Below, piece by piece: positions 34,441 to 53,198 of a stretch of DNA of 64,000 bases. Made by a program: the position numbers and the translations under genes. Each line of letters opens with the position of its first letter. Position 1 is the stretch's first letter. The notes under the pieces were generated by a model, which made no database searches, was not told the origin of the DNA, and was given only the letters and a program-made list of their open reading frames with translations. Origin of the DNA: Pirellulales bacterium (lineage in GTDB: Bacteria > Planctomycetota > Planctomycetia > Pirellulales > UBA1268); assembly GCA_029246985.1 (NCBI GenBank), contig JAQWMC010000033.1:4794-68793 (forward strand), read 5' to 3'.

Positions 34441-34962
34441 TCAATGACTTCCACGACCTCGGAGAGCAACTGCAATATCTCGTTTCGCTGTCTGTTCCTT
34501 AAGTTTCTGTCGCTTGTCATGAACCTTTCGACCTCGACCAATTCCGAGAAGAACTTTCACTCGCCCTTCTTTGAAGTACGCCTTCAAAGGAACTAGTGTC
34601 AGGCTTTTCTCGTAGGCGAGACTTGCAAATCGGATAATTTCTCGGCGATGGAGCAAGAGTTTGCGAGGTCGTTTGGGCTGATGATTCAGCTGGTTTGCCT
34701 TCACGTACTCCGGAATATCACATCCAATAAGCCAGACTTCGTTCTCTTTGACTCTGCCATATGCCTCGTCCAGTGATATTTTTCCAGATCGGAGACTTTT
34801 CACTTCGCTTCCAACAAGGGCAATACCGCATTCGAGGGTGTCAAGAATTTCGTAGTGATGCCTGGCTTTCCTATTTTCTGCGACGACACGTTCAGCAGGA
34901 TTATCCTTAGCAGATGCACCTTTTCTCGATTTTCCGCTGTTTGTCGGTTTTGGTGTCACCAT
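34441..34962 (-). CDS. smpB: SsrA-binding protein
   Basis: 173 aa. SmpB signature: ..NRKARHHYEI....GIALVGSEVKSLR.G..SL.EAY.. plus the basic C-terminal tail. Confidence 0.9.
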   Translation of the reverse strand: MVTPKPTNSGKSRKGASAKDNPAERVVAENRKARHHYEILDTLECGIALVGSEVKSLRSGKISLDEAYGRVKENEVWLIGCDIPEYVKANQLNHQPKRPRKLLLHRREIIRFASLAYEKSLTLVPLKAYFKEGRVKVLLGIGRGRKVHDKRQKLKEQTAKRDIAVALRGRGSH

Positions 34963-35102
34963 CTGGTTTGTCCGAGAAAAATTGAGTTGATGTAAGACAA
35001 CCCTCGTTCATGCGATCTTTCTTCCATGAAGGTACACTACGAATCGGTTCATCAGACAGAATTACCTTATTTTGTCATCATTTGAGCAAAACAGGATACG
35101 AC

Positions 35103-37475
35103 ATGATTCATTCTTTTTTTCCAAGTAGAGCTCCGGCATATCAAGCCTTCAGACTTTTTGCTGCCAGTCTCATTTCAATAGTCTCTCTAAATGGCATCTC
35201 TGCTGCAGATTGGACTGACTGGCGAGGCCCTCAGCAGAACCGTCACACAACTGAAAAACAACTCGTCACATCATTTGATCCTGATTCAGGTGAAAACATT
35301 CTTTGGAGTCATGACGGAGCCGGTGGAATTTCAACACCTGTCATCATGAATGGGCGTCTTTATACACTCGTTCGTCATGAACCTGGCACTTCAGAGGAGG
35401 CTGAAAAAGTTATTTGCATTGATGCAAAGACGGGAGAAACGCTCTGGGAGAATATCTTCAATGTGTATCTTTCTGATGTGCCTGCAGAACGAGTTGGGTG
35501 GTCATGTGTGATCGCTGACCCAAACACAAATCAAGTGTTTGCTCACGGAGTATGTGGGGTATTCACTGCTATGGATGCGGTCTCGGGGGAGACCAACTGG
35601 CAGCGATCCTTGCATGAAGAATTTGGTTTTCTTTCGACGTATGGCGGCCGAACGAACAGGCCACTTGTTTTTGAGGATCTCGTAATAGCCAGCGCTGTTG
35701 TAACCGGATGGGGAAGGACAGCAAAACCCGCACATCGTTTTTTGGGTATGGATGTCAACACGGGTGAGGTTCAATGGATGAATGGAACCCGTGAACTTCC
35801 GGCAGACACTACCTATTCAACTCCTATGTTTGCTGCGATTGATGGCGCCGCAGCAATGGTCTTTGGCTCAAGTGATGGAAGTATCTGGAATCTCCAGCCA
35901 AGAACTGGAAGGCCAATCTGGAACTTCCGCTTTTCACGTCGTGGCCTGAACGTAGCCCCACTTGTTACAAAAGAAGGCATTTATGTCTCGCAGGCTGAAG
36001 AAAACCTTGATAGCACATCAATGGGTGCTGTTGCGAAACTCAAACTCACCGGTGACGGAGACGTAACCGAAACAAATCTTCTTTGGCAACATAAAGCCGT
36101 GACAGCCGGGAAATCGATGCCGGTCGTCGTCGAAAATCGAGTCTACTTCGTCGAAGATGGCGCTAAAGTTCATGTTTTTGATCGGACCACTGGCGAACCA
36201 ATCGGACGGCCTACGCGACTTTTGGGCACAATTGTTCGGGCTAGTCCACTTGTTTCAAACGGCCTGCTTTATGTGTGTTCCACAAGTGGTTGGCATGTCC
36301 TGAAGCCAACAGATAGTGGACTGTCATTCGTCCATCGCATGAGACTTGCAGAAGAAGATGAAGTAACCGCTTCACCAATCGCTTGGAATGGCAGGCTTTA
36401 TCTGACAACGGGTGAACGGCTATATTGCTTAGGTAATGCAGAAACTCTTGCTGCTTCGTCGGAGGGTCGTGTTGATTCGCTTGGTGTCTCTCGTTCAGAA
36501 CGCATATCAAACATCACTAAGACGCCGGCCGGTCCACCCGCATGGGTTCAAATTGTGCCAGCTGAGTCGTTAATTGGTGCTGGAGAGTCAGTTGACCTAA
36601 GAGTTTATTTATTCGACGCAAAGGGTCGCTTTATTAAAGAGACACCAGCAACTTTTGATTCTGATTCAGGAACTATCACCAAAACAGGCCGGTATACAGC
36701 TCCAGAAAATGCACATGCAGGCGCGACCGTCACAGCCAGTATTGGTGAGTTGTCTGGCACAGCACGCATTCGTTCAATGCCACCTCTACCATGGAAATTC
36801 ACTTTCGATGACATTGATCTAGAGCCGGACCCAAAGGGTGGGTTTCCAAAAGGCGCACCTCCACTTCCGTGGGTTGGCATGCGATATCGAAATGTTGTTC
36901 GAGAAGTCGATGGCTCAAAATCTATGGTAAAGATTACAACTATTCCAAAGGGAACTCGAAGCCAAGGATGGATTGGACCGACTAATCTCAATAATTATTC
37001 TATCGCGGCTGACCTTCGTGCAGGAGAAACTGGAACACCAAATGCTCCTCTGAATAGTAACGGAACAAATCAGTCTCAAGGATTGACACAAGCAACTGGC
37101 AGCACTGATCTTCAAACATCTCGATTACCCGACATGGGGTTAATTGCTCAACGTTATACGCTTGATTTGATGGGGGCGAGCCAGCAACTTCAGGTCCGCA
37201 GTTGGCCTCCACAAGTCGCCACACACTTTTCAAAGACGGTGCCTTTTCAGTGGAAGGCTGGGACCTGGTACCGAGTCGTCTTTAAGACCACAACACAAGG
37301 AAATGATGCCGTTCTGCGGGGCAAGGTATGGCCCCGAGGCATGCCAGAACCCGACGCCTGGACCGTTCAGGCGGTCCACAAAGATGGTAACCTGCGAGGC
37401 AGTCCGGGGTTCTTTGGAAACTCAAAAATGTCCGAGATTTATGTTGACAACGTCATGGTGGAGGCCGCTCAGTGA
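35103..37475 (+). CDS. secreted PQQ-like (BamB-type) beta-propeller protein with a C-terminal Ig-like and concanavalin/LamG-like extension
   Basis: The start at 35103 gives a signal peptide (..LISIVSLNGISA) followed by ADWTDWRGP. Propeller blades are repeated. The C-terminal roughly 300 aa end in ..GTWYRVVFKT..GKVWPRG..GSPGFFGN..IYVDNVMV. Confidence 0.75.
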   Translation: MIHSFFPSRAPAYQAFRLFAASLISIVSLNGISAADWTDWRGPQQNRHTTEKQLVTSFDPDSGENILWSHDGAGGISTPVIMNGRLYTLVRHEPGTSEEAEKVICIDAKTGETLWENIFNVYLSDVPAERVGWSCVIADPNTNQVFAHGVCGVFTAMDAVSGETNWQRSLHEEFGFLSTYGGRTNRPLVFEDLVIASAVVTGWGRTAKPAHRFLGMDVNTGEVQWMNGTRELPADTTYSTPMFAAIDGAAAMVFGSSDGSIWNLQPRTGRPIWNFRFSRRGLNVAPLVTKEGIYVSQAEENLDSTSMGAVAKLKLTGDGDVTETNLLWQHKAVTAGKSMPVVVENRVYFVEDGAKVHVFDRTTGEPIGRPTRLLGTIVRASPLVSNGLLYVCSTSGWHVLKPTDSGLSFVHRMRLAEEDEVTASPIAWNGRLYLTTGERLYCLGNAETLAASSEGRVDSLGVSRSERISNITKTPAGPPAWVQIVPAESLIGAGESVDLRVYLFDAKGRFIKETPATFDSDSGTITKTGRYTAPENAHAGATVTASIGELSGTARIRSMPPLPWKFTFDDIDLEPDPKGGFPKGAPPLPWVGMRYRNVVREVDGSKSMVKITTIPKGTRSQGWIGPTNLNNYSIAADLRAGETGTPNAPLNSNGTNQSQGLTQATGSTDLQTSRLPDMGLIAQRYTLDLMGASQQLQVRSWPPQVATHFSKTVPFQWKAGTWYRVVFKTTTQGNDAVLRGKVWPRGMPEPDAWTVQAVHKDGNLRGSPGFFGNSKMSEIYVDNVMVEAAQ

Positions 37476-39130
37476 GATATTTGAATATCACCGTTTTTGT
37501 AGTAGCGATACTTGTAAGTTCTTCAGCCCATCTGGCTTCGGCCGATGATTGGAACCAATGGGGCGGCTCACCTCATCGGAATAATGTATCCGAAGCTACT
37601 GGAGTACCGACCGAGTGGGAACCTGGTGAGTTTGACTATGAAACGGGAAAGTGGAAAGCAGATACGAGTCAAAACATTGCATGGGTAGCCGCACTCGGAA
37701 GCCAGAGTTATGGCAATCCAGTTATCTCGGGCGGAAAAGTTTTTGTAGGCACCAACAACGGTAATGGATGGATCGAGCGATATCCGGCAAAAGTAGACCT
37801 TGGGTGTCTCATTGCTTTTGATGTTACGGATGGGGCGTTCCTCTGGCAGGATTCAAGTGAAAAACTTCCAACGGGCCGAGTACATGACTGGCCCCTTCAA
37901 GGAATTTGTTGTGCGCCTTTGGTTGAAGGTGACCGACTCTGGTATGTGAGCAGCCGCGGCGAGGTCAAATGCCTCGACACCGAGGGCTTCCGAGACGGAG
38001 AAAATGATGGCCCGTTCACTGAAGAGAGTACAGAAGCTGAAACTGAAGCCGATGTCGTGTGGGTATTGAACATGATGACCGCCCTAGGCGTATCGCAACA
38101 CAATATGTGTTCCTGCAGTGTCACAGCAGCAGGTGACCTTCTTTTTGTAAATACCAGCAATGGGGTCGATGAGGGTCATATAAATTTACCGAATCCAAAC
38201 GCGCCAAGCTTTATCTGTGTTGATAAAAGAGATGGAAACGTTTTATGGACAGACGCCTCACCGGGCCCAAATGTCCTTCATGGGCAATGGTCGAGCCCTG
38301 GATATGCTGAAGTTGATGGCGTCCCACAGGTCTTTTTTGGCGGTGGTGACGGTTGGGTCTACAGCTTTGATGCACGCGGAGACGGAAAAGGTGGCCCAAA
38401 ACTCCTTTGGCAATTTGATTGCAACCCAAAGGAGTCCAAATATTCACTCGGTGGACGTGCAGACAGAAATCATATCATCGGCACACCTGTATTTCACGAG
38501 GGCCTTGTTTACATAGCGGTTGGTGAAGACCCTGAACATGGTGAAGGCGTTGGTCATCTTTGGTGTATCGACCCAACAAAACGAGGTGACACGAGCCCTG
38601 AAATTGCAATCAGCCTTGAGGACCCCGATACTCCGCTGCCCCATCGTCGCTTGCAGGCAATTAACAAGGAAAAAGGAGAAGTCGCACGCCCCAACTCAAA
38701 CTCTGCAGCCGTCTGGCATTACCCAGGGTTTGATGCCGATGGAAATGGCAAGCTTAGTTTTGAAGAAACAATGCACAGAACCTGCGGAACGGTTGCAATC
38801 AAAGATGGCTTACTTTTTATTGCGGACTTTAGTGGACTTTTTCATTGCCTTGATGTCTCAACTGGAAAACCATATTGGACATACGACATGCTGGCAGCGA
38901 GTTGGGGATCTCCTCTCATTGTTGATGGCAAGGTCTACATTGGTGATGAAGACGGCGACGTTTGCATTTTTAAACTGTCGAAGGAAATGGACCTTGTTGC
39001 AGAGATTAACATGGGCAACAGCGTGTATACGACGCCAATCATAGCGAATGGAACGCTTTACATCGCAAACCGCAGCCATCTTTTCGCAATCAAAGAGGGT
39101 GCTAAGCCAGTCCAGAAAGTAGCTGACTAA
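37472..39130 (+). CDS. secreted PQQ-like beta-propeller repeat protein
   Basis: 552 aa. The GTG start overlaps the previous stop (GTGA). A signal peptide is followed by ADDWNQWGG, then repeated blade motifs (..G.VYIG..DG.V..). Confidence 0.8.
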   Translation: MRYLNITVFVVAILVSSSAHLASADDWNQWGGSPHRNNVSEATGVPTEWEPGEFDYETGKWKADTSQNIAWVAALGSQSYGNPVISGGKVFVGTNNGNGWIERYPAKVDLGCLIAFDVTDGAFLWQDSSEKLPTGRVHDWPLQGICCAPLVEGDRLWYVSSRGEVKCLDTEGFRDGENDGPFTEESTEAETEADVVWVLNMMTALGVSQHNMCSCSVTAAGDLLFVNTSNGVDEGHINLPNPNAPSFICVDKRDGNVLWTDASPGPNVLHGQWSSPGYAEVDGVPQVFFGGGDGWVYSFDARGDGKGGPKLLWQFDCNPKESKYSLGGRADRNHIIGTPVFHEGLVYIAVGEDPEHGEGVGHLWCIDPTKRGDTSPEIAISLEDPDTPLPHRRLQAINKEKGEVARPNSNSAAVWHYPGFDADGNGKLSFEETMHRTCGTVAIKDGLLFIADFSGLFHCLDVSTGKPYWTYDMLAASWGSPLIVDGKVYIGDEDGDVCIFKLSKEMDLVAEINMGNSVYTTPIIANGTLYIANRSHLFAIKEGAKPVQKVAD

Positions 39131-47579: not shown

Positions 47580-48446
47580 TTACTGTACCACGACAGGTTG
47601 CAAAGTTGCTCCCTGCCCAATTTTCCGGGCAAGGATACGAATATACGGTGGCAGAAAAGCTGCTCGATGAGCAAATGAGCCGCGAGCGGCTTCTCGATCA
47701 CCCTCACTTGGCTCAAAAAAATCTTCGATACAAAAGCCCGCATGGCATATCCCACCAACAATATCTGTTAGGGAATGGATGAATTCATCTGTCCCAACTT
47801 CCCTCAAACGAGAAGGTGGTGCCGGTGGAAGTGCTTTTGAGTCATCCACCGAACGAACCTCTGGATAAACAAGTTCATACCGACCATTGGAATTTGGTTG
47901 CAACGAAGATTGTAAATTTCTTGGAGACTTGTGCTGACTCATGTAGGATCCACCTGGCCGACAAATACGAAAAATTTCAACAAAAAGTTTGGCCAGAGAA
48001 GGCAGATAGCAACTGCTCACAGGGTGAATAACAAGGTCGAAACGACCGTCTTTCAACATTCTAAGATCATCCATGGAACTCTGTATCAGCTCAAGATGAA
48101 GTTTCCGTTCTCTGGCAACCTGTCGATCAAGGTCAAGCATTGACGCTGACAGGTCGACAACCGTCACTCTCGCACCGGCTGCTGCATAGAGTGGTCCATG
48201 CTTCCCTCCACCTGCGGCAAGACAAAGAACTTCCAGCCCGTTTAGGCTCGAAGGAAGCCACGGGCGATCAGCAGGACCACCTGTGCCAAGCCAGTTCCTT
48301 GGATCTACAAATGCCTCGTCACATGCAGGACTTGCCAAAGCGTCGTGCGCTTTGGCAAGTCGATCCCATGCTGCAGTATTTTTACACAGTGTCGCTTTCG
48401 AAACGGAAGAATCGGAACTATTTTCCATAACGAAAATTTTAGTCAC
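47580..48446 (-). CDS. class I SAM-dependent methyltransferase
   Basis: 288 aa with motif I (..VLCLAAGGGKHG..) and post-I (..VTVVDLS..). The GTG start overlaps the upstream stop (GTGACTAA). An alternative ATG lies at 48428. Confidence 0.75.
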   Translation of the reverse strand: MTKIFVMENSSDSSVSKATLCKNTAAWDRLAKAHDALASPACDEAFVDPRNWLGTGGPADRPWLPSSLNGLEVLCLAAGGGKHGPLYAAAGARVTVVDLSASMLDLDRQVARERKLHLELIQSSMDDLRMLKDGRFDLVIHPVSSCYLPSLAKLFVEIFRICRPGGSYMSQHKSPRNLQSSLQPNSNGRYELVYPEVRSVDDSKALPPAPPSRLREVGTDEFIHSLTDIVGGICHAGFCIEDFFEPSEGDREAARGSFAHRAAFLPPYIRILARKIGQGATLQPVVVQ

Positions 48447-48750
48447 GTGGGACTGATGAAAGCAGCCCCATTTGTCTCATTTCCGCAAGTGGTGGCCCTG
48501 GCCGCCACTTTTTTCGACGAGCGTCGTAGACTGCTGGAACAAGTGTCTGACGACCAGTTTCAGGATGCACACAACATTCTCCAGCGAGAGGAAGCTCAAA
48601 GACTTTGCCACTTTCTCGACAAACGTAGTGAATGACAATCACATCATCGTTCTCAACAGCGGGGGGTCTCTTTGCAAATACGGACGGGTAGAGAAGCCAT
48701 GAGGCAAGAACCAGACCGAATATCGCACCCCAGAGACGCATATCTTTCAT
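48439..48750 (-). CDS. small signal-anchored hypothetical protein
   Basis: I prefer the ATG at 48750 (MKDMRLWGAIFGLVLASWLL..), which is preceded by AGGAG with a 7-nt spacer. The longer track ORF would overlap the DUF1559 gene. Confidence 0.5.
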   Translation of the reverse strand: MKDMRLWGAIFGLVLASWLLYPSVFAKRPPAVENDDVIVIHYVCRESGKVFELPLAGECCVHPETGRQTLVPAVYDARRKKWRPGPPLAEMRQMGLLSSVPRD

Positions 48751-48775
48751 AAAGAATCTCCTACGAGTGAACAGT

Positions 48776-49726
48776 TTAGTTTCGGTCCCACAACGCATCT
48801 ACTTCTGCGTCATCTAAAGGATCTCCACCGTTCGATGTAGCTAATGGACTGATGATGTCTCCATTGCAGATTGCCCCAATATTATGGAACTCCATCTGAG
48901 CCTCTTGACCAGGGCTCGTCCACGGTCCGTTTCGAAACTTTCGGCTAAAGCCTTCAACATGCCCGTCAACAAAGACCGCATTGGCAAACCCACCACCATG
49001 ACGAAAATGAACTACTGGGTCTGCCGTCGAGGGCTTACTAAAACCACCAAGCTGTTCTCTCAGACCATACGGTGCTGCAAAATAAATCATTGCGGTCTCT
49101 GCAAATGCAATTGTCCGAGAGGTCTCAGGGACATCTCTGATTCTGTATGCTTTATCTTGATACGGTCCTGCAGCGTCGTAATAACCTCCTGAACCAGGTC
49201 CGAGCTGCGAGTTGTACCCAAACGCGGTGGCGATACGATCACCAAACTTGACTTCTTCAAGCATTGATTCTGAAAAGTTTGGACACTGTAAAACAGAAGC
49301 GTTTGATTCAAAATATGGCTGCAGCGGCCCGGCTGTGACATCAAGTGTGCCATTGGAGTCAGTCGTGTAATCAACTTCACCAAACCAAAAAAGAGCTTTT
49401 CCACCAGGCGTCCAGCTTCCAGCAACAGACGCTGCATAGCGAGTATCATCATCAATCTTCTGACAAGGAAACTTTTTATTTGCAGACATGTAACTGTGCA
49501 TCGCGACGCCTAGCTGCCGCACGTTGCTTGAACAGCTTATGCGACGGGCTGACTCACGAGCTTGCTGCACTGCAGGCAGCAATAAACCAACGAGAACACC
49601 AATAATTGCTATGACAACAAGCAGTTCAATCAGCGTGAAGCCTGCTTTTTTTTCACCACATGCCTGTACCGTTCCGCTACCTTGCAACGACACATTTTCC
49701 CCGTGGAAATAGAAATCTCGAGTCAT
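48776..49726 (-). CDS. DUF1559-type protein with an N-terminal prepilin cleavage/methylation motif
   Basis: ..[37 protein letters not shown].. is the classical G/FTLIE type IV pilin-like N-terminus, followed by the DUF1559-style body. I prefer the ATG at 49726, preceded by GAGAGGA; the track ORF extends to 49771. Confidence 0.85.
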
Positions 49727-50555
49727 AAGAAAATCCTCTCGGCCACAGCAGAATGCACCCGCTGTGACCATGAATGTAAATCTGTCTACGGACCACTCGC
49801 GCGGCCCGTGCTCGTGAAACCGCCCTCGCAGTCACACGTGCTCTCAATGCGTAGTGGTAGGTCTTCTGACTCTCAGACGTGCTTGGACAATACCTTCTCG
49901 CAATCAAGCCTGATTGCAATGGTCGTGATTGTTGTCCAAGCCAAGTAATTGAAGTGATTCGAGTTACTTATCTGATTACAGCGGCGGGGCCGTCCCGGAA
50001 TTACACCGGTGTTCCCTGAATGCTCCTCAATGCCAACTGGCCTGAGGAGCCACCAAACGCTAAGGCCGAAGCATATTGATATGAAACGCAATGTCAACTG
50101 CTGGTCCTATGCTCCGTATGCACATTCGGAAAACTCCACTTGGCCGGAAAAGCCTTCCAAATGACAGCCTCGAAGTGCTGAAGTTTTACGGTCAGGTAAT
50201 TTTTAACACTCGGGAATACCGGTAATAGGACGCCAGTCCTCACAGTCAGCACGACAGTCAAAAGCACCATCTTTTTCCCGACTGATACAGCTAAGTCGTT
50301 ACTGAAAAAAAACTTAGAGCCAACTCAAGCCTGTTTCCCTTGTCCGCCGATAGCCCCTGTGTCCCCCGGGGCATCACTGTGCCCGTCGGGTAACGAAACG
50401 GGGGCGGTAGTAACCTGATTTTTCTCGAGTCACGGATTGGCTTGGGCAGGCCTACCGCAGAAATTAGTTCGTAGATCACACCCTCGGGGTGACAAGACCG
50501 CGCGGTCGGGATGAACCATTCAGGCGTGATCTACAAGCAAAGGAGATGTGGCTCG

Positions 50556-51365
50556 ATGAAGCGTATGATGTTTCTCGGTGCACTAGTTTTAGGTGTTACC
50601 GTCTGTAGTCAGTCTTATGGATTTGAGCTTCTTGATAGAATGCTCGGCCATGGCTGTTGCGATTCGTGTTGTGATTCATGTGAGCCGGCTTGCGGATGTG
50701 AGCCAGCTTGCGGTTGTGAGCCAGCTTGCGGTTGTGAGCCAGCTTGCGGATGTGAGCCAGCTTGCGGTTGTGAGCCAGCTTGCGGATGTGACGATGGATG
50801 CTGCGACAGTTGCTGCGATAGCGGTTGCTGTGGTCGCAGGAAATGTGATTTATTCGGTGGCTTGAAAGGTCTTTTCGAGCGATGCCACCATCGTGGTTGC
50901 TGTGATAGCTGCTGCGACAGTGGTTGTGAGCCAGCTTGTGGTTGTGAGCCAGCTTGTGGTTGCGAGCCAGCTTGTGGTTGCGAGCCAGCTTGTGGTTGTG
51001 ACAATGGTTGTGACAGCGGATGCTGCGACAGCTGCTGTGGAACTCGCAAGCGATGCTGCAAGCACCCACTTCGCGACTTGCTCCGTGATCTTCACGAAGC
51101 CAAGAAGCGTTGCTTTGCTCGACATCATCGCGGATGCTGCGACAGCTGCTGCGACAGTGGATGTGAGCCAGCCTGTGGATGTGAGCCAGCCTGTGGTTGT
51201 GAGCCAGCTTGCGGTTGCGAGCCAGCTTGCGGTTGCGAGCCAGCTTGTGGATGCGAACCAGCTTGTGGAATTGAGGCAGCTGTTGCCCCAACTCCGGACG
51301 CTTCCGCATCAGCCACAAGGGCTACCAAGGTAATTGCGGTCAGTCGTACCGTAAGCACCAAATAG
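50556..51365 (+). CDS. secreted, extremely Cys-rich modular repeat protein: three modules of CCDSCCDS followed by (CEPACG)n; function unknown
   Basis: AGGAG (50541-50545) lies 10 nt upstream of the ATG at 50556. The N-terminus is signal-like (MKRMMFLGALVLGVTVCSQSYG). There are 16 perfect CEPACG units. By hand count, 63 of 269 residues are Cys. A strong terminator follows about 50 nt after the stop. Confidence 0.75.
   Translation: MKRMMFLGALVLGVTVCSQSYGFELLDRMLGHGCCDSCCDSCEPACGCEPACGCEPACGCEPACGCEPACGCEPACGCDDGCCDSCCDSGCCGRRKCDLFGGLKGLFERCHHRGCCDSCCDSGCEPACGCEPACGCEPACGCEPACGCDNGCDSGCCDSCCGTRKRCCKHPLRDLLRDLHEAKKRCFARHHRGCCDSCCDSGCEPACGCEPACGCEPACGCEPACGCEPACGCEPACGIEAAVAPTPDASASATRATKVIAVSRTVSTK
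50679..50786 (+). repeat. tandem 18-bp coding repeat, 6 copies (TGTGAGCCAGCTTGCGGN = CEPACG)
   Basis: Read directly from the sequence. The repeat is in frame with the CDS, and the copies differ only at third codon positions. Confidence 0.95.
50925..50996 (+). repeat. tandem 18-bp coding repeat, 4 copies (TGYGAGCCAGCTTGTGGT = CEPACG)
   Basis: Read directly from the sequence. This block uses TGT rather than TGC for the second Cys codon in every copy. Confidence 0.95.
51162..51269 (+). repeat. tandem 18-bp coding repeat, 6 copies (CEPACG)
   Basis: Read directly from the sequence. Copies vary by GCC/GCT, TGT/TGC, GGA/GGT and one GAA for GAG; every difference is synonymous. Confidence 0.95.
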
Positions 51366-51415: not shown

Positions 51416-51454
51416 CTCCGCTCGGGGTACCTACCCCGGGCGGAGTTTTTTATT
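51416..51454 (+). terminator. rho-independent terminator of the Cys-rich gene
   Basis: CTCCGCTCGGGGTA..TACCCCGGGCGGAG forms a roughly 12-bp GC-rich stem. It is followed by TTTTTTATTT. Confidence 0.8.
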
Positions 51455-51925
51455 TGCCGGATTATAAAACTTAATGTCTTTTCCAGCCCTCAGAATACAC
51501 ACGATCAAATATGACATCCGCATCTCAACTGCACCTTACTGCAAGCCTTTGTACATGAGATGTATCTCATTCCTTTGGTGTTGAGAAATGTTTGCGAACA
51601 ACGCCCACTTCCAGACAAAAAAGTATTCTCGTTTCGGGCATCCAGCAAGTAAGGATCCGTTTTGCATACAGGGTGAATTAAGAGTTGAAAACCCCGCACA
51701 AATCAGACTGACCGTCCCGATAGGACCCGTTCGCCTCGACTTTTCAGAATACACCCATACTCTGGCTCAAAATGGAGCGGCTCAGCCCCCCAGAGCACTT
51801 CTTTCGATTGTCGAGTGCGTCCGTTAGCCCTACAATAGTTAGCAGTGGGTTCAGCGAGTTCTGGCAAGTAGCTTCGAACTCTAGGATCCTGACATGAATA
51901 ACGCCCTTTCGCCAGACACTTTACA

Positions 51926-52853: not shown

Positions 52854-53198
52854 ATGAAGTGGCATATGTATGCACTGGCACTAATTGTTGCCAGTGCTGT
52901 TCTGGGGTATTCGTTACCTGCACGCGCCCAACAGCCACCAACGGCTGGCCAACAGGCTTATGGTTATCAGTGGGCAAACTCGTACAACACCCACGACTGG
53001 AATCGTCTCTACCACTATCCGTATGTCTGGTATCCCCAAAACTATTACGCTGATGGCTATATGAAAAGCGCTAATGATCTCTACCATCGCTATCCACAGG
53101 AAATGCGCGTACCCGTTTACAATCGATCATGGCAAAATTACTATCCAAAATCTCGTCGGTACTATCAGGGCCATCATTTTCAACTCGACGTATTCTGA
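52854..53198 (+). CDS. small secreted Tyr/Trp-rich protein (hypothetical)
   Basis: 114 aa with a signal peptide ending ..LPARA. The mature 89 aa contain 17 Tyr and 4 Trp by hand count, with recurring YP and NYY motifs. Confidence 0.55.
   Translation: MKWHMYALALIVASAVLGYSLPARAQQPPTAGQQAYGYQWANSYNTHDWNRLYHYPYVWYPQNYYADGYMKSANDLYHRYPQEMRVPVYNRSWQNYYPKSRRYYQGHHFQLDVF

Follow-up and report, generated by a model that had tools for sequence, protein, structure and literature searches.

In the 64,000-nucleotide (nt) stretch of Pirellulales DNA analysed here (the window), the gene at 50556..51365 on the plus strand encodes a very cysteine-rich, probably exported protein and is preceded by a conserved structured 5' leader RNA of about 230 nt (50324..50555, plus strand). 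Both the protein family and the leader are new, in that public data hold them as unannotated sequence only, and the protein resembles cysteine-rich envelope or metal-binding proteins in kind, without kinship to any of them. The favoured reading, to which a probability of about 0.4 is given, is that the protein is a disulfide-crosslinked matrix protein of the cell envelope rather than a metal sink. A wider picture is more doubtful: the locus might pair a new class of sensory RNA (a riboswitch or a protein-binding RNA of ~230 nt) with a new extracytoplasmic cysteine-array protein, which would be either a cystine-rich envelope matrix of Pirellulales or the first Sec-exported, high-capacity, metallothionein-like sponge, whose synthesis the leader would set according to the redox or metal status of the envelope.

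The cysteine-rich gene and its product

The reading frame opens with the ATG at 50556, and its stop codon ends at 51365, giving 269 amino acids (aa) plus the stop. Comparisons were made with a set of 80 fetched loci, of which 77 are uncut by a contig end and 78 provided upstream regions for alignment. The Shine-Dalgarno sequence AGGAG (50541..50545, plus strand) lies 10 nt 5' of the ATG within an invariant block, CAAGCAAAGGAGAUGUGGCUCGAUG, and is the same in nearly all of the 78 loci. An intrinsic terminator (51416..51455, plus strand) follows the stop codon and consists of a 13-bp hairpin (51416-51445) with 10 G-C pairs and a T-run, TTTTTTATTT; since the gene stands alone between the leader and this terminator, its transcript should be monocistronic. 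A longer open reading frame (ORF) starting at 50511 was ruled out, because the homologues conserve the Shine-Dalgarno site and, like the frame from 50556, start with MKRM. An out-of-frame AUG at 50546-50548, in the invariant block GGAGAUGUGGCUCGAUG right after the Shine-Dalgarno site, would open an overlapping ORF of 20 codons; though invariant, it is probably not used, because no spacing separates it from that site.

These signals are those of the well-signalled 269-aa gene described in the original prediction, which was made from the window sequence, and the script count of 63 cysteines among 269 residues (23.4%) is identical to the hand count given there; the 16 neighbouring genes average 1.3% cysteine. 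The three-module scheme proposed at the same time stood as regards the 16 exact copies of CEPACG, which are arranged as 6, 4 and 6 at aa 42-77, 124-147 and 203-238 (script count), but the CCDSCCDS motif is present four times (aa 34, 82, 115 and 194) and not three, the additional copy ending module 1.

Tandem Repeats Finder reports three period-18 arrays in the gene, and tandem 18-bp repeats also give long ORFs on the opposite strand and in the other frames, a property that would suit a non-coding satellite open in one frame by chance. The probability of such a satellite is practically negligible. The 16 repeat units vary at synonymous positions only (TGT/TGC, GGA/GGT, GCT/GCC, CCG/CCA, GAG/GAA), and the frame is open through the repeats to the conserved tail in 77/77 uncut loci. 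Because the differences are all synonymous and all uncut loci keep the frame, the ORF is coding. The frame-disrupting repeat changes that the original prediction had named as the mark of a satellite occur in none of these 77 complete orthologues, although the copy number changes, in frame every time, even among close relatives: it is 6/4/6 in the window, 6/5/8 in L001, 4/6/6 in L002 and 4/10/7 in L003. The synonymous-only differences, the intact frames and the in-frame changes of copy number together refute the satellite reading, and the gene further has a non-repetitive N-terminus, linkers and tail, all conserved, as well as a Shine-Dalgarno site, a conserved leader and a terminator. The cysteine-rich ORF is a real gene under protein-level selection. 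Codon usage was uninformative as a proxy for its expression, because the repeats homogenise the codons, and two short contigs (~1 kb) checked as possible transcripts begin at different 5' positions and came without sample metadata, so that they gave no evidence of expression.

A protein search recovered 485 relatives, all of them without a name (annotated "hypothetical"), and a scan with one genome per species found a relative encoded in 314 genomes. The members come from metagenome-assembled genomes (MAGs) of Pirellulales, mainly from freshwater, with a few mislabelled bins. A distant member used as the seed of a second search gave 347 matches and brought in cultured Pirellulaceae: Novipirellula artificiosorum (Poly41_12050), Rubripirellula lacrimiformis (K227x_06970) and Rosistilla oblonga (CA51_05110). 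Ca. Laterigemmans baculatus and Allorhodopirellula solitaria are further carriers, and fragments of the family were found in Rhodopirellula rubra, Roseiconus and N. galeiformis. An exhaustive profile search yielded 438 clusters at 50% identity (E<=1e-3), 241 of them at E<=1e-10, nearly all of 200-300 aa and aligned from end to end. On these searches, the family appears to be restricted to Pirellulales. The gene is usually present in single copy, and it is near-universal and syntenic in its clade.

Neither the window protein (E<=10) nor any of 52 relatives (E<=1) has a match in Pfam, which excludes the YTV, metallothionein, keratin-B2 and chlamydial outer membrane protein families. Searches of NCBIfam and of PDB sequences likewise gave no match, and literature searches for the repeat motif and for the family found no paper mentioning either. 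The protein belongs to no named family, as had been supposed. When the N- and C-terminal motifs were joined, without the rest of the protein, into a chimeric query, nothing but this family was recovered, short versions of 90-136 aa among it; on this result, the termini were rejected as sorting signals common to other protein types. Several metagenome proteins (P0231-P0235, P0237 and P0239) have one or two modules (90-161 aa) and retain the signal, the first helix and the tail. Such short versions may be genuine minimal members or the product of repeat collapse in short-read assemblies.

The protein begins with a Sec-type signal peptide (aa 1-21; 50556..50618, plus strand, as are all the parts of the gene given below), made up of MKR, a 13-residue hydrophobic core, MMFLGALVLGVTV, and then CSQSYG. 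The mean Kyte-Doolittle value of aa 4-16 was computed as 2.4, and inspection places small residues at -3/-1 (S-Q-S or S-Y-G). With its positive n-region, an h-region of 10-15 residues and these small residues, the N-terminus has by inspection the conserved features of a signal peptidase I substrate, in agreement with the signal-peptide-like character first assigned to it. There is no twin arginine (KR stands in the N-terminus, and KW or IR in some relatives), so that export by twin-arginine translocation (Tat) was ruled out on the sequence. A lipoprotein was also ruled out, since no lipobox is present, the V-T-V before Cys17 being unlike one, and Cys17 itself is not invariant. For these reasons, Sec export followed by cleavage by signal peptidase I is the best reading. 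The N-terminus, MKRMxFLGALVLGVTVCSQSFGF(E/D)LLDRMLG, hardly varies within the main clade and can be recognised in all clades. The conserved start of the mature protein, FELLDRMLGHG (50619..50654), forms the putative amphipathic helix 1; it is kept family-wide as F/G-F-E/D-L-L-D-R-M-L-G and falls in a helix predicted by AlphaFold2 (aa 3-29).

Three cysteine modules follow, joined by two linkers. Module 1 (aa 34-97; 50655..50846) consists of CCDSCCDS, six copies of CEPACG and CDDGCCDSCCDSGCCGRRKC, and its predicted local distance difference test (pLDDT) value in AlphaFold2 is ~40. Linker 1 (aa 98-114; 50847..50897), DLFGGLKGLFERCHHRG, combines an amphipathic helix, predicted by AlphaFold2 at aa 101-111, with a basic and histidine-containing patch, and it occurs in all clades as HDLFGGLKGLF (..KRKHH) or GGLLSKLF. 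Module 2 (aa 115-169; 50898..51062) comprises CCDSCCDSG, four copies of CEPACG and CDNGCDSGCCDSCCGTRKRCCK. The strongest amphipathic helix, with a hydrophobic moment of 0.83, is that of linker 2 (aa 170-193; 51063..51134), HPLRDLLRDLHEAKKRCFARHHRG, which AlphaFold2 predicts as a helix at aa 171-193 with a pLDDT of 86-88 and which has the family motif TPIxDLLRAIHxAKK. Module 3 (aa 194-238; 51135..51269) consists of CCDSCCDSG and six copies of CEPACG. The protein ends in a conserved tail (aa 239-269; 51270..51362), ..APTPDASA..KVIAVSRTVSTK, which is the 31-aa stretch rich in Ala, Ser and Thr already pointed out in the original prediction; most of the 77 complete orthologues have K-V-V/I-A-V-S-R-T-V-x-x-K here, and the tail of the distant clade reads APMPPAPIVDPSA..RRVIQASxxYVR. 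The absence of a hydrophobic core beyond the signal peptide, also claimed there, agrees with the mean Kyte-Doolittle values there, which stay at or below 0.71 in every 19-residue window.

Across the family, the core of the cysteine modules, C-(E/D)-P-x-C, is kept, with units of 6, 9 or 11 aa and differing copy numbers. The cysteine content ranges from 13% to 24% and the cysteine count from 36 to 71; only 37 of 77 orthologues have an even number, which makes a defined disulfide fold with all cysteines paired unlikely. The signal, the helices and the tail are conserved while repeat length and copy number vary freely, which suggests that the repeats act via their bulk composition and not through a fixed fold. 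AlphaFold2, run with a 53-sequence alignment, gave a mean pLDDT of 51.7 and a predicted template modelling score of 0.29; the cysteine modules, at ~40, are without helix, and confident values (up to 88) were obtained solely for the helices at aa 3-29, 101-111 and 171-193. The mature protein (~25 kDa) is thus predicted to be largely unstructured and modular. It is acidic, with 38 D+E against 22 K+R, and has seven histidines and four aromatic residues, none of the latter within the cysteine modules. Its predicted tryptic peptides include ones of 66, 63 and 51 residues, and standard proteomics would consequently miss the cysteine modules.

The presence of K/R-rich linkers between three similar modules, together with the single-module versions of 90-136 aa in metagenomes, brings to mind a multi-core precursor that would be cut at the basic linkers into three secreted cysteine-rich peptides of antimicrobial or signalling function. 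This seems very improbable: the genes linked to it include no maturase, protease or ABC exporter, conservation is highest in the linkers and the tail, which is the opposite of how spacers behave, and the miniature versions may be repeat collapse in assembly.

Possible functions of the protein

The periplasm is an oxidising compartment, in which metal sites usually consist of methionine or histidine rather than cysteine. Since the 1980s, planctomycete envelopes have been known for an unusual richness in protein, cystine and proline, and the molecules behind this are only partly known (the YTV proteins). Abundant envelope proteins, such as OmpA and the S-layer proteins, have long, stabilising 5' leaders. 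Three sets of reasons favour an envelope matrix. One is the probable Sec export to an oxidising compartment of a protein whose repeats appear to act through bulk properties and whose cysteine number is under no parity constraint. Another is the housekeeping-like conservation and synteny of the gene, with no metal genes nearby. The third is that planctomycete walls are cysteine-rich and that abundant envelope mRNAs with long leaders offer a precedent.

The role of the protein may be structural, that of crosslinking the cell envelope. Once exported to the oxidising periplasm, the three modules, rich in Cys, Pro, Gly and acidic residues, would form intra- and intermolecular disulfides, the partners being the modules themselves and other cysteine-rich proteins of the wall. 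Three conserved amphipathic basic helices (FELLDRML, DLFGGLKGLF and LRDLLRDL) and a conserved C-terminal strand would dock the protein to the membrane surface or to a partner. In function it would then parallel the cysteine-rich envelope proteins of chlamydiae or the keratin-associated proteins, and it would be a candidate component of the cystine- and proline-rich envelope classically described for Pirellula. With up to 24% cysteine and probably hidden from trypsin-based proteomics, the family is a concrete and testable candidate for such an envelope, and cultured strains carry it.

The closest analogues are OmcA and OmcB of chlamydiae, which belong to the same PVC (Planctomycetes-Verrucomicrobia-Chlamydiae) superphylum, are exported and very cysteine-rich, and are thought to stiffen the envelope by disulfides. 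However, the protein described here has no Pfam match to Chlam_OMP3 or OMP6 and no lipobox, whereas OmcA is a lipoprotein, and OmcA and OmcB are not hexapeptide arrays; crosslinking by the Pirellulales protein is proposed by analogy. Mammalian keratin-associated (high-sulfur) proteins form a crosslinking matrix and have short repeats of the C-C-x-P-x-C type in variable copy number, and some relatives of the window protein (P0099, with CCQPKCGCEP) are strikingly like them. Their origin is nevertheless unrelated and any likeness convergent, with no Keratin_B2 match in the family. Planctomycete walls have been described as protein-rich, and wall preparations contain the planctomycete-specific, cysteine-rich YTV proteins (PF07639) (PMC8567305). 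The family has another architecture, with no YTV match in 53 members, and was never reported in a wall proteome.

Several points weigh against the preference for an envelope matrix. The members of the family are known from sequence alone, the wall proteomes report YTV proteins and not this family, and the docking of the helices to a membrane is read from a sequence pattern. The acidic, aromatic-free modules, with their CC, CxC and CxxxC spacing and flanking histidines, are equally metallothionein-like, and the extreme conservation of the leader is also expected of a metal- or redox-sensing riboswitch. C-E-P-A-C-G resembles the C-P-x-C-G metal "knuckle" plus one residue, which is a lead and not a test. 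Copper is bound by the CxxxC motif in CutF, which is Sec-exported too (PMC9973294).

The main alternative, held tentatively, is a high-capacity sink in the periplasm that would bind Cu(I), Zn, Cd or Hg through thiolates, similar to metallothioneins or phytochelatins, with the leader, conserved at the level of a riboswitch, as its metal- or redox-responsive switch. Cysteine makes up 23% of the protein, patches of His, Arg and Lys lie beside each module, every repeat carries an E or a D, and the low pLDDT of the modules is as expected for apo-metallothioneins. The metallothioneins (SmtA/BmtA, MymT, PmtA and the eukaryotic ones) and the phytochelatin-like (Glu-Cys)n polymers share the cysteine density, the CC and CxC spacing, the absence of aromatic residues and the disorder in the metal-free state. 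Metallothioneins are, however, small, mostly cytoplasmic and fixed in their cysteine positions, while the protein in question is 25 kDa when mature, acidic and variable in its repeats, has a Sec signal and matches no metallothionein model. The Csp1 and Csp3 proteins, which are high-capacity metal stores lined with cysteine, Csp1 being exported, are four-helix bundles, and Csp1 leaves the cytoplasm by Tat, in contrast to the Pro-containing repeats found here, in which no helix is modelled, and to the N-terminus, which has no twin arginine.

Export by Sec would deliver the protein unfolded into an oxidising compartment, which does not suit a metal sink, nor does a leader that accompanies this one gene only, whereas most metal riboswitches also control transporters. 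No metal sensor, regulator, chaperone, transporter or efflux gene is found near the cysteine-rich gene in at least 80 loci of two synteny types. Because the gene is near-universal and syntenic, and not accessory, and because such metal regulators and transporters are absent from its surroundings, the genomic context leans against an inducible metal-detoxification gene. Should metal binding be true, the protein would be an unprecedented exported store of the metallothionein type in abundant freshwater bacteria.

Very dense thiols in an exported unstructured protein, whose cysteine number varies freely, could also make a sacrificial periplasmic thiol/redox buffer, a scavenger of oxidants (H2O2, HOCl, electrophiles) or a carrier of sulfane sulfur. 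This idea is purely compositional and is held to be improbable, given that the linked genes include neither a thiol reductase nor a Dsb-type partner and that nothing indicates that the thiols stay reduced outside the cytoplasm.

The 5' leader RNA

The leader extends from an invariant CUCAAG box to the start codon (50324..50555) and is not in Rfam. It was noticed via over-extended gene calls in MAGs, which had a conserved "translation" 5' of the start, and then in the alignment of the 78 upstream regions. It is nearly invariant in the 78 genome loci and in about 108 metagenome loci, including the 25 nt before the ATG, and this holds across lineages whose housekeeping proteins are about 50% identical. 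In blastn comparisons with 76 loci, the median identity was 80% for the leader and 69% for the GATase gene, and for the MoeA gene, the methyltransferase gene and the B12 riboswitch no alignment spanning half the length could be made; the identities of the neighbouring proteins are 45-55% (MoeA), about 62% (methyltransferase) and about 78% (GATase). Judging from these comparisons, the leader is the most conserved DNA and the most unusual feature of the locus, and it had been missed in the original prediction.

A search of Rfam with the plus strand of the leader gave no match at E<=10. The Rfam matches nearby are a minus-strand cobalamin riboswitch upstream and two weak minus-strand chance matches, among the matches on that strand being asX3, which was dismissed as chance (E = 0.37). 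A small ORF in the leader was ruled out: indels of 1-2 nt, a variable start (A/G/C/U-UG) and extended MAG gene calls in different frames show the leader to be non-coding. A location on the minus strand was also ruled out, since the many G-U pairs would turn into A-C mismatches. When metagenomes were scanned with a core pattern of 23 bases from the 5' domain, 120 loci were found, of which 119 carry the leader and one is a chance match, and the cysteine-rich gene lies 177-192 nt downstream in every locus long enough. Because 119 of 120 matches carry the leader and the gene follows wherever it can be read, the leader is dedicated to this family.

The leader consists of a 5' domain, a long hairpin and a long-range helix, all on the plus strand. 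The 5' domain (50344..50403), CCGCCGAUAGCCCC..UGUCCCCCGGGGCAUCACUGUGCCCGUCGGGYAAC..GGGGG, is G+C-rich, almost invariant and putatively aptamer-like; its helices are predicted only, at positions that never vary. In the long hairpin (50404..50458), an outer stem, GCGGUAG (50404-50410) with CUACCGC (50452-50458), and a middle stem, CCUG (50414-50417) with CAGG (50447-50450), carry an apical stem, UCGAGUC (50425-50431) with GGCUUGG (50439-50445), whose loop ACGGAUU (50432-50438) contains GGA. The apical hairpin, UCGAGUC[ACGGAAU]GGCUCGA, never varies among the leaders, and its fold is likewise predicted. The long-range helix pairs GUAGAUCAC (50471-50479) with GUGAUCUAC (50526-50534), and between its two strands, within 50471..50534, lie a small hairpin that is conserved and another that varies.

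The structure was tested on 75 non-redundant leaders by comparing the number of compensatory cells with 500 shuffles and with slid partners. The proposed structure has 41 such cells against 10.7 in the shuffles, none of the 500 being as high, and 10 or fewer when the partners are slid. Covariation supports the helix GCGGCAG/CUGCCGC (50404-50410/50452-50458 in the window), the helix CCUG/CAGG (50414-50417/50447-50450) and the long-range helix, which covaries among GUGGAUCAC/GUGAUCCAC, GUAGAUCAC/GUGAUCUAC and GUGAAUCAC/GUGAUUCAC. In the long hairpin, pair 98/148 is GC in 47 leaders, GU in 18 and AU in 10, and the long-range pairs 170/242 and 171/241 show seven and eight double changes. The distant relative L083 has the same long hairpin, in which the loop is AGGAG and the outer helix, GCAUCAGC/GCUGAUGC, is wholly different, and other Pirellulaceae leaders keep CCGAUA and GGAGAYGUGGCUC beside a long helix of their own. 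In cultured Pirellulaceae (L081, L082, L206-L208 and L210), the region ~100-230 nt upstream of the gene shares a long-range helix, GAACGAAGUCGSCGG/CCGGCGACUUCGUYC, with Shine-Dalgarno-like GAGG/GGAG boxes, and is a diverged form of the leader that would strengthen a covariation analysis.

Pairing of the Shine-Dalgarno region with an upstream box (AAGCCGCUUUCC with GGAGAUGUGGCU, the 5' box) is present in minimum-free-energy folds and paired in 82% of cells, yet its covariation is not beyond that of the shuffles, and the same applies to an alternative helix, GCCGCC/GGCGGC. An alternate pairing of UCGAGUC with a copy of GGCUCGA at the start codon was set aside as speculation, both sides being invariant and the pairing not being kept in L083.

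The leader most likely sets the stability and/or the translation of the mRNA. It contains two A-N-GGA motifs, ACGGA in the invariant hairpin loop (50432-50436) and AAGGA (50540-50544) at the Shine-Dalgarno site, which doubles as the second motif. At least two such motifs, one in a loop and one overlapping the Shine-Dalgarno site, make up the layout of CsrA/RsmA leaders and of mRNAs repressed by CsrA-type proteins, and control of this type would fit the sequence. This idea is built on two GGA motifs, and a ligand-sensing riboswitch is a possible alternative. The leader resembles the structured leaders of abundant or secreted structural proteins (ompA, S-layer genes and hag, the CsrA-controlled flagellin) and riboswitches in its long conserved fold, which ends at the Shine-Dalgarno site, with one GGA in a hairpin loop and one at that site. 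In contrast to all of these, the present leader matches no Rfam family and is exclusive to one gene family. It is a new candidate cis-regulatory RNA, structured and under strong constraint, and with the one target to which it is dedicated it offers a good entry point to a new regulator or ligand.

A scan of the plus strand 5' of the leader found no sigma-70-type promoter, and the gene may use a non-canonical one, possibly of the extracytoplasmic function (ECF) type. Conserved boxes lie just 5' of the leader at 50293-50317: AAGUCGU, and an A-run followed by ACUU.

Surrounding genes

The cobalamin riboswitch upstream (RF00174; 49839-50069, minus strand, 73 bits) is divergent from the cysteine-rich gene and has a sigma-70-like promoter (50097-50070) ahead of it. 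Behind it, on the minus strand, are a DUF1559/prepilin-type gene (48776-49771), a gene for a small exported protein (48439-48798) and an S-adenosylmethionine (SAM) methyltransferase gene (47580-48446). The arrangement of the riboswitch with DUF1559 recurs in many loci of the main clade. This B12-regulated operon hints that some of the numerous DUF1559 proteins of planctomycetes may act in cobalamin uptake. A functional link between the operon and the cysteine-rich gene was ruled out, since cultured Pirellulaceae have other genes in its place, namely a small cupin and two BamB-like PQQ propeller genes, which lie upstream and divergent; LpxB is often encoded downstream. The same pair of large genes for BamB-like PQQ_2 beta-propellers is also present in the window (35010-37475 and 37472-39130, plus strand), as what remains of an earlier gene neighbourhood.

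Two further observations concern other parts of the window. An ORF similar to SmpB, the protein that binds transfer-messenger RNA (tmRNA), is located at 34441-34962 on the minus strand, and no tmRNA or tRNA gene was found in the window. On the plus strand, 3' of a gene of the metallo-beta-lactamase fold, positions 52854-53198 encode a 114-aa exported protein rich in Tyr, Asn, Gln and Trp, which has no Pfam match and is conserved in the closest relative (L001) only.

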